Assembly (NCBI GenBank): GCA_951406725.2
Contig: OX597816.1
Location: forward strand, 44,082,001 to 44,146,000
From: Octopus vulgaris
Taxonomy: Eukaryota
Length of the DNA: 64,000 bases
Direction of reading: 5' to 3'
Positions within the stretch are counted from its first letter, which is position 1. Every line of letters begins with the position of its first letter. The position numbers and the translations under genes were made by a program. Shown here one piece after another: positions 11,963 to 18,417 of the stretch. Under the pieces are notes generated by a model that was given only the letters and a program-made list of their open reading frames with translations, was not told the origin of the DNA and did no database searches.

Positions 11963-12210
11963 GTGGAGGCGCGTGGCTTAGTGGTTAGGGTATCAGAACC
12001 ATGATCGTAAGATTGCGGTTTTGATTCCTGGACCGGGCGACGAGTTGTGTTCTTGAGCAAAACACTTCATTTCACATTGCTCCAGTCCACTCAGCTGGTA
12101 CATATGAGTAACGCTGCGATGGACTGGCGTCCCGTCCAGCTGGGGAACACCTACGCCATAGAAACCGGGAAACCGGGCCCATGAGCCTGGCTAGGCTTTA
12201 AAAGGGCACA
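11963..12210 (+). mobile_element. tRNA-SINE family C, full length
   Basis: A box TGGCTTAGTGG, B-box-like GTTTTGATTCC, ttgtgttcttgagcaaaacac, gctgcgatggactggcgtcccgtccag (V-domain-like). Confidence 0.92.
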
Positions 12211-14211
12211 TATATTTTTTGTTTTTATAATCTCACTTGCGCTAGTTCCCCTTTGACTCTGTTTTATTCATACATCATTGTTAAAAGGGCTACTGTTTTG
12301 TCAGACAGTTTTGTGAAATTGGGGGTTACCATTGGTAAATCTTCAATTTAGTGCTCTGTCTCTGCTCATACCATCAAAGTATCTAAGTGATTTTCATCTT
12401 CCTATTGAGTGCGAAATTCTCCCAACTATATCATCTGATATGGCGCGGTATTTAGTACCTATGTTAAAGTCCAGCAAAGCCTACCATGTTTTAATGTTTG
12501 TTCTGTTCGGGTGTTCACTACATGATATTGTGAATTCTTACGAAAAGCCATATGTATATACTCTTATGGCAATCCTGAAACTCTACATTCTTTGCCAGGG
12601 TTTCGGTCCCATTCAGAAGAATGTCCGTTGCAAATAGTCTCATATGGAAGAATGCTCTCTATATATAGTTAAATGATTTCTGTTCGTCTCCTGACGAAAA
12701 CAAACCTAGTTCAATATGAAATATTTCACTGTCATATGTTTGAAGATTGTTACATGCTTGTTTCTTGTTCCTTGCGTGTCAGAAAGTCTTTTAGAATATT
12801 ATGAATTACGCTGGCCAACATTCTTCGTAATTAATTTGCTACTTCTAAAAAATATCCCACACTCATCAAAGCAGTCTTTAGAAGATTATGATGCCTTATT
12901 GACTACGTCTAATAACACCAAAGTATATCCGTAGCTGTCATCTTGACAGCTAACAAGGATTATCTTTTTCCCCCTGGAATAAAAATTAAGTTTTCTGAGA
13001 AATTAATTAAAACTTTTGGAAATAACATACCTTGTTTTTCAAGAAATGCTAATAATTTCTGTTAGTATTCCGATTCTTGTCCTTAAGACACAAATTACAA
13101 TTTATTAAGGATTTTTAGCACACGTTATTCAGAACATCACCACCTATATCAATTCTTTATATTAAGTTATTTCTCATATTCACTTATAATTATGCAGTCT
13201 ATAACAGCGAGAGTATTTTATAAATATATAGATATACAGTTCCATTATGGGTAGGTTCAACAAAAAAAGTAATCCACCCGGTGAGAGTTAAGTATCATTT
13301 TATATACACAGTATTTAAATAAGAGCTGCTAATAGTTTCATGCTGTGGAAACAATGATTTATATAACAATCCTCTAAGCTCATGTATGTGGTTAGTCCTA
13401 TTTGAAAACCTGGACGCTGACCTATGAGAATACACAAGAAATAAGCGTAGCTGATGCAAAATGTGGAACGAGAAGACAAAAGTTAAAGAGAAAAGGAAGA
13501 GAAATAAAATCGAAAGAAGCGTTTCCTTCGTCTGTCGAAATCATAGTATAGTGTAAAATAATCCGACAAGGAGGCGGCCAACGTCAGCAAGCTAATCAAT
13601 CTGGTCAGGGAATTGTTTTTCAGTTCGATATAAGAATTTGTCCAGGTGCTTGTATTTGTTAAAAACTTCGGACCTCGAATTAAAATGTGAGCTCGATTTA
13701 TTGGATCGAAAATCAATGAGCAATATTTCAGTTATGCATAGCTTGCATCAATTTAATTGATCTACACGTGGCGTTGATTTCTCTATTTCATAAATATGCC
13801 TGACAAAGTATCACCATAGCATGAAACTATTTGTAGCTCTTTTGCTTGTGTATTTAAATCAATATTTATATCCTACTAGATGGATTACTGCGGAGAAACG
13901 GCTAAGAAATTTGCCATGTTTATAATTATACCATGTTACATAGATACATACAACTTGTGTGGGGGGAGGGGGTGAAAAGGTTGAGTTTAATTTCATTCTT
14001 TATTTTGGAGGGTACCAAAGAGGCGATTTGTAACATAGATTAGTTATTATTCGTTGCTAGCTTACTGTCGTTAGATTTTTGCGAATATGAAATTATTACA
14101 TGAATATAGTATGGTATGAGAATTAATGGAAAGGTATCCCATAGAAACTCAACAGACTGTTAAAGATGGAGAAGAGAAGATGTTAAAATTTTCAAAAAGT
14201 ATTTTAATGCA

Positions 14212-14327
14212 TGCATACGATCGTTTCGAACAGCAATACTAACATGTAAATAATATACTAAAATAATTAGAAATTAATTAAATTAAATTTAATTAATTAA
14301 TTACTTATTACTGCTCTCCTCAGTGCA
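14212..14327 (-). ncRNA. Type I hammerhead ribozyme, intact core
   Basis: Minus strand TGCA-CTGAGGA-GAGCAGTAATA...TATTGCTGTTC-GAAA-CGATCG-TA|TGCA. Stem II is 11 bp; stem III palindrome ACGATCGT. Confidence 0.88.
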
Positions 14328-14932
14328 AAAAAGAATGCAGTAAAAAATTCTTCTTATTATTATTATTGTTACAGAAGACTTGATGGAGGAATTAGCAAAT
14401 AACCTATTCGGATATACATATTTTATCCTTATGAAAATATAAGTGAAAGAAAATATATATAGAAAAATTACCTGTATATAAAAATAAGTGGTTAAGTAAT
14501 ATGCACTCCAAATAAAGCATTTATCAAAGAAGTAAAATAGAGATGTCTAATGGGATACAATAGATATATTTAAATTAGGATATGACTTGACAGTTACAAG
14601 TAATATATAAGTAATATAAGGTATTAATACTTCCCGGTGTTCTATTTGGTCATATATTTTTTTTTTATTTGTTCATTTCTTTCTTCTTGGTATTCAAGTT
14701 CAACTTGTATAATATGTACTTTAAAATTTACGTTTCTCAACTATTCCAATTTTATTAATGTTTAAGGTTACTTGTCAACCTACCTGATATTTACTTACAT
14801 CTTGCAGCTGATATATGCTTACACATATAATTATAAAAATTATTAGTGCCCTACTCTTCTACAAAATGTATCATATCGTTTTATCATTTATCTTTTTGTG
14901 CCCTACATATAACTGATTTCATATTATCATTA

Positions 14933-14964
<32 letters not shown>

Positions 14965-14965
<1 letters not shown>

Positions 14966-16258
14966 TTTTTTTTCTTCTTTCAAATTTGCTTCCATTTCTT
15001 GCCGAGTGTCTTCCCGACTCCTAGGGCAAAGAAACTCATAGTATACATTGGTAGGCCATTAAACCAAACTCAATAGTTCGTTCATTTTTTTAATTTTTTT
15101 TAAAGTTAAATTAAAATACATGAGCAGCAATAGTTCTCACATCGACAATGCTCTTCTCAATACGTGTGATGTACCAGTTAAGACAATCTTTTGCATTTCT
15201 TGCAGGGATGGTAAGCCAGGGATCATTTTCATATAATTTTCGGTTCCCTTCTTGATCATTCCTAGTGCTCCTACGATCACTGGTATTGTAACCGCCTTGA
15301 GATGCCACATTTTCTCAATTTCAATGAGTAGGTCTTTATATTTTCTGAGCTTGTCAAACTCTTTCGCTGAGATATTATGACCACAGGGGGTGCTCATGTC
15401 GATCAATAAGCAAACTTTATTGTTTTGGTCTTTCACAACAATATCTGGTTTATTGGCCTTGATGGTTCGGTCTGTATGTACTGGAAAGTCCCACAGAATC
15501 GTTACATTTTCTCCTTCAGTTACAGCCTCAGGGTGGTGATTATACCACTTGTCAGCAGTTTTGATATTCTAATGCCGACTTATTAGCCAGTGTAGATATT
15601 GGCCAACTCTGTCATGTCTTAATTTATACTCCACTGGTGCTAAGACTTTACATCCAGAGATTAGGTGGTCCACTGTTTCAATCATGTCGTTGCAGAATCG
15701 GCATTTTGGGTCTGCTCCATTTTTCATCACATTGGCCTGGTAGTTCCGGGTTAATAGGCTTTGATCTTGAGCAGCCAGGATGAAACCTTCGCTCTCTGCT
15801 TTTAGCCCTGAGCTCCGTAGCCACTGATGGGTTTGCTTCTGGTCAACATCAGCTTGTTTGCTGCGGGCCACATATTTGCCATGCAGAGGTTTCTCCTCCC
15901 ACCTATCAGCCAATTGCTCGTGCGCTTTTTTCATTGCCATTATTTTCACCTTCTTTGCAACAATAGTTGCCGTACTTCCCTCGGGTTGTTCAGTTTGGGT
16001 ATCCTGCACGAGATCAATAGCAATTGCTTTCCTTTATGATAGAATGAAGCTTCTTTCGTCTCTCGTGATTTTCCACGAGCTTTAGCATCCTGTCATTCGT
16101 TATTTCGAGATATTTGGCAAGTCCAATTGTGGTTGTTTTGTAAGCTAGTTTAAATTGGATCAGGCCTCGACCTCCTTGGGCTCTGGGAAGGAAAAGGCGA
16201 TCTACGCCTGCCTTTGGGTGGTGCATCCTATTACAACTCAGCAGCTTGCGTATTTTCC
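14965..16258 (-). mobile_element. 5'-truncated R4/Dong-clade non-LTR retrotransposon (thumb, CCHC knuckle, restriction-like endonuclease, 3'UTR)
   Basis: HPKAGVDRLFLPRAQGGRGL; CRFC..ETVDHLISGC; RHDRVG; KPDIVV..LIDMS..K..KY. Broken by a frameshift and a stop; (TTA)n on both sides. Confidence 0.92.
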
Positions 16259-16272
16259 TATTATTATTATTA

Positions 16273-16338
<66 letters not shown>

Positions 16339-16339
<1 letters not shown>

Positions 16340-16600
16340 TTTTTTTTTTCTTCTTTCAAATTTGCTTCCATTTCTTGCCGAGTGTCTTCCCGACTCCTAG
16401 GGCAAAGAAACTCATAGTATACATTGGTAGGCCATTAAACCAAACTCAGTAGTTCATTATTTTAATTTTTTTTTAAAGTTAAATTAAAATACATGAGCAG
16501 CAACAGTTCTCACATTGACAATGCTCTTCTCAATACGTGTGATGTACCAGTTAAGACAATCTTTTGCACTTCTTGCAGGGATGGTAAGCCAGGGATCATT

Positions 16601-16605
<5 letters not shown>
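16339..16605 (-). mobile_element. Second, shorter 3' end of the same R4/Dong element
   Basis: Near-identical to 14965-15232; flanked by (TTA)n at 16259-16338 and 16604-16659. Confidence 0.92.
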
Positions 16606-16659
<54 letters not shown>

Positions 16660-16846
16660 CACTATTGCTGCTTAAATATATATTAACACTGATTGATATT
16701 TTATATTTTTACTTAAAAATTGCTTACACATATGCGTATGCCCAACATTCATGAATACACATATGCAGATGCATATTTATATATACATATATATGTATAT
16801 ATATATATGTTTATATATATATATATGTGAGTGTGTGCGTAAATTA

Positions 16847-16901
<55 letters not shown>

Positions 16902-18164
16902 GTATATATTATAGCTTATAATATCTTCTTTCATATTTGTGGATAATTGTAATTATAATTATACCTATAGTCGTTTTCTTGGGAGGTTTGTTTCTTTTTG
17001 TCCTTATCTTTACACTGTATAATTATTCTCATTATCTATGATCGTTGTTTTATCTGCCACATCTACCTCAAATAAAATAACTAAAATGTAGCTAGGATAT
17101 GTAATCTCATGTATACATTTCTCGTAGATATGTTCTCTGTAAATGCATCAGTATACAATATAAATATTTTTTATTCATAAGATTTTTTTATATATGAATT
17201 ATTTTCCTTGTTCTTAATATACTTATTTGAACACTTTACTCTATAAAATAAGAAAAAAACATTTTTTTTGTTACATTCACAATTCACTATTACCTTATAT
17301 CAGATAGACAATAATTATTTATATAATATTACTATAGACTTCCCATTTCTTTTCTGCCAAACTAGATTCTCAAATCTTATTCAATTTTTTTTTATTTATA
17401 CAAAAACATAGTCAGCCTACTAAATACCGATAATTATAACTTATTATAAAATACATTCTTACGACTTTGTCTCTGCTTTTATCTCCCCTTACATCTTCAT
17501 TATCATTTTCCTGGAACGGTTGTTTTAAAGACATTTTTAACCACTGCAATTCGGTAATATTAACAACAATACTTCAATTTTTATTTTTTATCTTAATATT
17601 TAATTCACACAAACGAAAATAAGATTTTACACTAAACGTTTTTCTTTTTTTCCATTATTTAGAGCCATTCTCTAATAAATTCCTTCTTTTCGTTCGCGTT
17701 TAAGCAACCTAATAAAAATTATCTTAACTAGTTATTATTTTTTTATTCTCGCACAAAAATTTCTTTTCTCTATAAATAACTTCTTTAAATATACACCGTA
17801 TCTTATATTACTTATATATTACTTATAACTGTCAAATCATATCCTAATTTAAATATAACTATCCTATCCCATTGGACATCTCTATCTTACTTCCTTGATA
17901 AATGCTTTATTTGGAGTCCATATTACTCAGCTACATATTTTTATATACAGGGAATGTTTCTATTACATCTTTCACATATATTTTCAAATAACCGTTAGCC
18001 GCATCAGATATAGTTTTTTCACAACTAGACTCAACATCATTTTTTTAGTATGCTCTTGGTCTTTCATAAGGTTAAAATATGTATATCCGGATATGTTATT
18101 TGCTATTTCCTCCATCAAGTATTCTGTAACAATAATAATAATAATTTTTTGATGCATTCTTTTT

Positions 18165-18270
18165 TGCAATGAGGAGAACAGTAATATGTAATTAATAAAT
18201 TTAATTAATTTCTAAATATTCCAGCATACTATTTACATGTTAATGTTGGTGTTCGAAACGATCGTATGCA
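18165..18270 (+). ncRNA. Type I hammerhead (C3 mutated to A)
   Basis: TGCA-ATGAGGA-GAACAGTAATA...TGTTGGTGTTC-GAAA-CGATCG-TA|TGCA; partner of 14212-14327. Confidence 0.8.
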
Positions 18271-18371
18271 TGTATTAAAATTCATTTCTTTAAATTTTAA
18301 CATCTTCTCTTCTCCATCTTCGTTGAATTTCTATGGAATAGGTTTCCAATAATTGTCATGCCATACCATAT

Positions 18372-18373
<2 letters not shown>

Positions 18374-18417
<44 letters not shown>

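Follow-up and report, generated by a model that had tools for sequence, protein, structure and literature searches.

The stretch of Octopus vulgaris DNA analysed here, 64,000 nucleotides of contig OX597816.1 (assembly GCA_951406725.2, forward-strand positions 44,082,001 to 44,146,000; 'the window', from whose first letter all coordinates below are counted), carries between 13972 and 18414 the remains of a Penelope-like element (PLE) flanked by inverted arms. Comparing the window with itself to find inverted arm matches yielded two: 14097-14436 against 18378-18062 (82.4%) and 14432-14623 against 17986-17799 (88.5%). The left arm (14097..14623, minus strand) is an inverted, 5'-truncated copy of the element's 3' end, or pseudo-long terminal repeat (pLTR), and the right arm (17799..18373, plus strand) is the 3' end of the main body. 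About 71 nt that are present in the right arm and in other family copies are deleted from the left arm at 14432-14436, a private change that accounts for the ~70 nt by which an earlier note on this DNA had found the left arm shorter. Outside the left arm lies a one-sided tail of ~130 nt (13972..14099, minus strand), which is the element's 5' leader between pLTR and open reading frame (ORF) and occurs only in the inverted copy here; its outer end, at 13972, adjoins a decayed (TG)/(CA)-like stretch. The right arm stops at a short terminus without tail, followed by a (TA)20 tract (18374..18414) that adjoins the right end of the window's copy and is likely the target. The two truncated 5' ends meet head to head at 14621..14630 with no host DNA between them. 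Contigs of three public DNA runs filed under three different organism labels (X2, X4 and X7, with 0, 1 and 2 letters differing) cover this left junction, so the structure is real and not an assembly artefact.

Between the arms, the proximal 3' non-coding region (14625..14925, plus strand) is a repeat shared with other copies, and the remaining 3' non-coding region (16660..17798, plus strand) is pyrimidine-rich on the sense strand, lacks an ORF and includes an AT/GT microsatellite (16773-16913). The two regions are separated by an (ATT)n tract native to the element (14922..14964, plus strand, resuming at 16259-16338 and 16604-16659), which comes after the same 3'-region segment in other copies, and by two later insertions into it. 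The first is a 5'-truncated non-long terminal repeat (non-LTR) retrotransposon (14966..16256, minus strand) inserted in (TAA)n, and the second (16340..16605, minus strand) a shorter 3' piece of the same family, 95% to the first. The first piece is 96% identical at the DNA level to a copy with a 1235-aa ORF of RT, CCHC and REL type, the motifs of which we take to be reverse transcriptase (RT), zinc-knuckle and restriction-like. All 150 scored matches of this family are 97-100% identical, that is, the family is young. Judged from target and domain layout rather than a reference alignment, both pieces are assigned to the Dong/R4 type; (ATT)n is the target described for Dong (PMC7998251). The earlier note's reading of a Penelope-like element with inverted pLTRs, interrupted by Dong-type and microsatellite inserts, thus stands.

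The interior is not unique flanking DNA, the finding that the earlier note had named as fatal to its reading. Genome searches, in which 40 of 661 candidates were scored for the right arm, 40 of 65 for 16915-17800 and 25 of 25 for 14620-14925 (all counts being lower bounds), gave at least 54, 55 and 27 matches, respectively, at 64-89% identity; the arm, the left interior and the right interior are all repeats and are collinear in other copies. We fetched 40 longer, ten-kb loci, four of which (L131-L134) belong to a sister family. Among the remaining 36, 20 had been picked from interior or arm matches, some after ORF pieces were seen alongside, and 16 from protein matches. Twenty of the 36 loci have a broken endonuclease-like frame on the interior's strand, upstream of it, and no locus has one on the opposite strand; the distance from the endonuclease match to the first interior match is 306-844 nt in 18 of the 20. 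The interior is found without an endonuclease-like frame (at least 50% identity, within 2.5 kb) in nine of the 36 loci, and seven have no interior match; in the 16 loci chosen by protein match alone, it is downstream of the gene in eight. The orientation of the ORF relative to the hammerheads, which the earlier note had wanted determined, is therefore that of the right ribozyme. We found no RT or endonuclease remnant and no match to the family ORF in the window, which is why the earlier reader could identify neither an RT nor a GIY-YIG motif: the window's copy has lost the whole ORF by 5' truncation and starts inside the 3' region. As a side observation, a 127-nt part of that region (14705-14831) is doubled, 80 nt apart, in L081, L084, L090, L096 and L098, and the window's copy begins just past the first unit of the doubled stretch.

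Fuller copies give the layout of the intact unit. In L087, L138 and L139 an arm, the tail and the start of the ORF follow one another, all in sense, as a direct pLTR ahead of the ORF, with the ATG of L087 ~70 nt beyond the tail end; L090 has the window's layout, with an inverted arm, and retains part of the ORF inside. From these layouts, the unit runs from a pLTR with hammerhead through a ~200-nt leader, RT, Asn-rich linker, endonuclease and 3' region to a second pLTR, and measures ~5 kb (2.68 kb of ORF region plus a 1.7-2.0-kb 3' region ending in the pLTR). RT precedes endonuclease in a single ORF. Family copies contain the motifs RMRWK (L087 and L138), DKT in place of DKG (L087, L135 and L138), LYRDD, CNCRx4C, CxxC and CxH. 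An alignment of the family endonuclease with 52 relatives (53 rows) keeps the CxCX5C linker and the CxxC and CxH around E and N; C6, C8, C14, C105, C108, E111, N124, C133, two tyrosines, an R and an H are invariant, and no cysteine is invariant in the stretch from one tyrosine box (Y26) to the other (Y41), so that CCHH is absent in these 53 rows.

Domains were recognised through structure prediction only: sequence and profile searches of the Protein Data Bank (PDB) gave nothing significant, and Pfam on 41 aligned homologues returned three unrelated single-member matches only. A model of the family endonuclease (L074; predicted local distance difference test score, pLDDT, 87.8) matches I-TevI (Z 9.3, root-mean-square deviation 2.3, 89 aligned), T4 EndoII (Z 7.0) and UvrC (Z 6.0); Foldseek ranked the same proteins first, with weak E-values of 0.26-0.93. 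The intact sister protein of L134 was modelled with the help of 40 homologues, and telomerase RTs fill the first six rows of its Foldseek list (E 1.7e-9). The C-terminal endonuclease of the family gene is thus predicted to have a GIY-YIG-like fold, and the RT, judged from the family's RT motifs and the sister-protein model, to be telomerase-like.

Because RWK, DKT, CxCX5C, the CxxC/CxH pair and the absence of CCHH are clade diagnostics in PMC8557442, we assign the family, by motifs rather than by an RT tree with named families, to the Hydra clade, the C-terminal endonuclease-containing (EN+) PLEs described there (Craig et al. 2021; examples are Hydra-1_Obim and Penelope-13_HM). Naiad/Chlamys was rejected, as it requires an endonuclease N-terminal to RT, the opposite of the order here, and so was Neptune/Nematis, since its CX2-5CxxC linker and the CCHH inside its endonuclease are both absent. 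A Neptune-type GIY-YIG ORF beside the arm in L006 and L036 was likewise rejected as the family's gene: it lies beyond a microsatellite there and is nested inside the interior in L053 and L150. Such Neptune-type PLE endonucleases were seen at L006:553-1338 (minus strand), L053:1897-2355 (plus strand) and L150:4080-5151, with a Pfam GIY-YIG match for L036 at E 8.7e-7. The sister family, a young one of Hydra type (L132-L134 and L155-L184), has a pLTR-leader 93-100% identical among copies, an ORF of ~934 aa, a ~2.7-kb pyrimidine-rich 3' region and a hammerhead with a long stem II, unrelated in sequence to the window's.

With the Hydra clade as described in PMC8557442 the family further shares a sense hammerhead near the 3' end and (TA)n targets. 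Penelope-13_HM is listed there with a 5'-truncated inverted copy at its 5' end, like the layout in the window, and the N-terminal part of Hydra-1_Obim, compared by eye, has the family's motifs in the same order; the hammerhead sequences of the two differ, however, so the family is separate from Hydra-1_Obim. The 27 listed Hydra families, one of them from Octopus bimaculoides, measure 1.1-3.0 kb (file S1), whereas this family reaches ~5 kb and does not show the clade's 'generally short (<3 kb)' trait, which PMC8557442 gives as a general, non-diagnostic one. Listed Hydra hammerheads have a stem II of 3-7 bp and a loop 2 of 3-10 nt (file S2), as against a 12-bp stem II with a ~65-nt insert here; the Asn-rich linker, the 1.7-2.0-kb microsatellite-bearing 3' region and the many (CA)n besides (TA)n targets also set the family apart. 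The literature that we searched yielded no published description of the family's size, tail length or stem II, although repeat libraries, Repbase included, may hold it; the words 'Hydra' and 'hammerhead' are absent from the main text of an octopus repeat annotation (PMC13282606).

The layout of an inverted truncated copy with a one-sided tail is already known for PLEs, as described in PMC8557442 and PMC3846280. Adineta vaga Penelope (PMC3846280) and Anolis Poseidon (PMC11167929) both have a head-to-head inverted truncated copy and a tail at one end, and in published EN+ PLEs, as here, the tail consists of what adjoins the pLTR on its ORF side; A. vaga also has Asn-rich inserts between RT and endonuclease. 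The tail itself differs: it is ~130 nt in this family and 30-40 nt in published EN+ PLEs (PMC8557442, PMC3846280), and it ends short of the ORF, ~70 nt ahead of the ATG, whereas the published tails end within it.

Each arm carries an outward-reading hammerhead motif, as the earlier note had seen; the self-comparison and the core patterns bear this out. The left type I motif (14205..14345, minus strand) has an intact core (CUGAGGA...GAAA, C3 at 14323), 89 nt between the boxes, an 11-bp stem II with an AU-rich insert and a palindromic CGAUCG stem III, with a predicted cut after 14216. The right motif (18145..18280, plus strand) is in sense to the lost ORF, with a predicted cut after 18266, and has A at position 3 (18169). 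The intact left core, 11-bp stem II and AU-rich loop and the C3A of the right motif, all reported in the earlier note, are thus confirmed by the core pattern. Rfam at gathering thresholds returned no matches, and the motifs were confirmed through the core pattern and pair counts on 50 aligned copies (56 matches, less six that were cut inside the motif). Every core base is intact in 18 of the 50 rows; C3 is present in 40 and A in three, from which we conclude that C3A is decay of the window's copy and not a trait of the family. Pairing holds in 87.5% of the cells of the hammerhead structure and in 91.4% of those of stem II (12 pairs). Covariation is weak, with two-sided changes at seven pairs, where shuffles give 4.7 and come as high in 76 of 500; the sole clear case, an A-U to G-C change shared by 15 rows, most likely arose once and was inherited within a subfamily. 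The minimum-energy folds of both motifs are not hammerheads, the constrained hammerhead lying 7 kcal/mol (left) and 5 kcal/mol (right) above them; in a predicted alternative hairpin of the left motif, a possible off state, the U-rich stem I bulge pairs with the CUGAGGA core.

The Type I PLE hammerheads described by Cervera and De la Pena (2014, PMC4209133) likewise have a short helix I, an enlarged helix II and a dimer-suited palindromic helix III, and many decayed solo motifs and opposite-strand pairs are found both in those PLEs and in this family. According to that account, a helix III palindrome such as CGAUCG points to dimer-dependent, low predicted activity. Helix II is longer here than the 7-8 bp of Schistosoma motifs and has a long AU-rich insert, and helix I, unlike in those motifs, runs on past a U-rich bulge of ~8 nt. 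By its core and pairing, the pLTR hammerhead on the sense strand is a predicted ribozyme, as in EN+ PLEs.

Across the family, the copies end at two sharp termini ~130 nt apart, a tail end and a short end. Of 67 distinct outer ends, 32 lie in the interval equivalent to 13960-13995 and 25 in that equivalent to 14090-14125, the other 10 being scattered elsewhere; most of the 67 adjoin (TA)n, (CA)n or (TACA)n. Both termini of full-length copies lie at short alternating runs of the element itself, TA/CA runs within the element RNA: CATATAC at the short end and CACATATATAT at the tail end. Twelve further loci have arms on both strands. The arms face outward in all twelve; nine combine a tail with a short end, one has two short ends, two have other ends and none has two tails. 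The inner end of the inverted arm varies from locus to locus, and the arms are therefore truncated copies and not fixed terminal repeats. This amends the span of 14100..18375 with ~550-bp arms given in the earlier note: the arms stand, the left limit gives way, since family sequence reaches 13972, and the fixed length does not hold. In a tree of 53 arms two subfamilies are separated (support 97/97, bootstrap not fully settled), and both arms fall in the same subfamily in all eight pairs scored (the window and seven other loci). Relative to the family majority, the window's two arms diverge by 8.2% and 6.9% (median 10.8%).

Taken together, we consider it very likely that the locus is a dead, 5'-truncated Hydra-clade PLE insertion, in which the final ~2 kb of the 3' region meets, head to head, an inverted, shorter copy of the same end, both probably stemming from one insertion. 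Several observations weigh against this. No target-site duplication was readable at the locus; the window's arms form no clade in the arm tree; the left arm is the best match of the right arm by a small margin only (88.9% against 88.5%), the left arm is closer to at least six other copies than to the right arm, and reciprocal best arm pairs were found in only three of the seven other loci. As to the identity of the family, the RT fold was examined on the sister protein of L134, which is 39-64% identical to family fragments, no intact ORF of the window's own family was found among its copies, and Pfam is blank for RT and endonuclease, both for the family endonuclease and for the sister ORFs.

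The arms, differing by 11% and forming no supported clade, and the want of a target-site duplication would also suit two independent insertions, in which a truncated copy was already in place when another member of the family inserted in reverse precisely at the 5' edge of the first. We regard this as improbable: the junction contains neither host nor microsatellite DNA, the uniformly outward orientation of the twelve other two-armed loci and their nine single tails speak against independent events, as does the shared subfamily of the paired arms (8/8), and 7-8% decay per arm explains the difference between the arms.

The preferred reading takes the interior to be the element's own 3' region, whereas the earlier note had suggested a decayed ORF antisense to the right ribozyme. 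That the interior is a decayed second gene in this orientation, kept by the family or captured early, is very doubtful. The strand skew is real: the purine fraction of the interior is 0.36-0.40 on the plus strand, leaving the minus strand (~0.60) purine-rich like the coding strands of these elements (0.55), and minus-strand stops in the majority sequence of 30 right-interior copies (fewest 23) come near, but not below, the shuffle 5th percentile of 22. The long stop-poor stretches that the earlier note had described are within what composition gives: the longest stop-free frame on the minus strand of 16915-17800 in the window is 53 aa; in the majority sequence neither strand has one longer than 58 aa (95th percentiles in shuffles: 103 and 64), and a period-3 signal is lacking (p 0.32). 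Translation of the 302-nt left interior, in the window's copy only, gave no frame above 45 aa. Interior indels are multiples of three in 56 of 300 cases, a weak test in decayed copies. Nor does the interior match the family ORF. On the family's sense strand the purine fraction is 0.54-0.55 in ORF DNA and 0.36-0.42 in the 3' region, a drop repeated in the young sister family (from 0.55 to 0.39-0.41), whose ORFs are intact and whose 3' region has no antisense frame above 90 codons, stop to stop; the skew is therefore a trait of these 3' regions. An antisense gene intact while the family was active is thus largely refuted, although a far older gene, since erased, would escape these tests. The interior, which the earlier note had left as cargo of unknown nature, is 3' non-coding sequence, ~2 kb long, belonging to a decayed repeat family.

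Finally, a non-autonomous foldback or retrozyme-like element moving as a unit with fixed ~550-bp terminal inverted repeats, which the long inverted arms and the lack of an ORF in the window's copy might suggest, is hardly credible given the variable inner ends, the absence of a second copy with the window's junction among the loci examined, the collinearity of the interior with the 3' region of ORF-bearing copies and, for retrozymes, their head-to-tail tandem units each with a hammerhead, in place of two motifs in opposite orientation.

How would a single insertion give rise to this structure? By analogy with published PLE work, the GIY-YIG enzyme would cut both strands of a TA/CA microsatellite, and each cut end would prime reverse transcription of the element RNA from an internal start site, the short terminus serving one end and the tail terminus the other. 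Synthesis of the two complementary DNAs (cDNAs) would break off early, at 14625 and at the position equivalent to 17799, and their head-to-head joining would explain why the ribozymes face outward and why the tail is at one end only. Two Dong-type insertions into the element's (ATT)n, the 71-nt deletion and 7-8% point decay per arm, C3A included, would have followed. The hammerhead would have processed the element's RNA, probably in dimeric form or assisted by a protein. Self-priming via a junction palindrome is not supported: the window's 10-bp palindrome, equalled by 10.5% of background windows, does not exceed background, the background fraction is below 0.05 in only three of 14 junctions (in ranges chosen by eye), and the family's junctions show no consistent palindrome, which sets them apart from published EN+ PLE inverted copies.

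PMC11167929 describes cutting and extension of both target strands by a PLE protein, with two internal RNA start sites bounding the tail, whereas PMC8557442 ascribes the tail to endonuclease resolution of an intermediate; our data separate neither account from the other. A search for literature on Penelope pLTR tails with twin priming found none. Tentatively, the ends of the family may be set by annealing: either TA/CA run would anneal to a nicked (TA)n/(CA)n target, from which reverse transcription would start, the length of the tail would be the spacing of the target-like runs, and the long stem II could be a lineage-specific protein-binding or regulatory arm. While the termini here lie at target-like runs, the Anolis start sites are reported to be non-homologous to the cut DNA (PMC11167929). 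The sister family speaks against annealing as a general rule: TA is all that its main terminus has in common with the target, and the single candidate tail seen there measures 48 nt.

Several further repeats were seen at these loci. In the window, the left flank of the element (13780-13959) is itself a high-copy repeat by contig depth, and 12001-12218 is a further short dispersed repeat common to several fetched loci. RTE-like non-LTR pieces lie in or next to the family's microsatellite zone (L081:4270-4886 and L082:5995-7299). Near-identical family copies in L049 and L050 (and L056), 20-40 kb apart on one contig, are probably a segmental duplication.

The window's locus itself is ordinary transposon debris. 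The family to which it belongs widens the range of the Hydra clade, with its ~5-kb unit, ~130-nt tail and long-armed predicted hammerhead, and its two sharp termini at internal target-like runs offer a lead on the origin of tails and inverted ends in microsatellite-targeting PLEs. The same genome also contains the young sister family, which has intact ORFs and is suited to testing how such termini arise.

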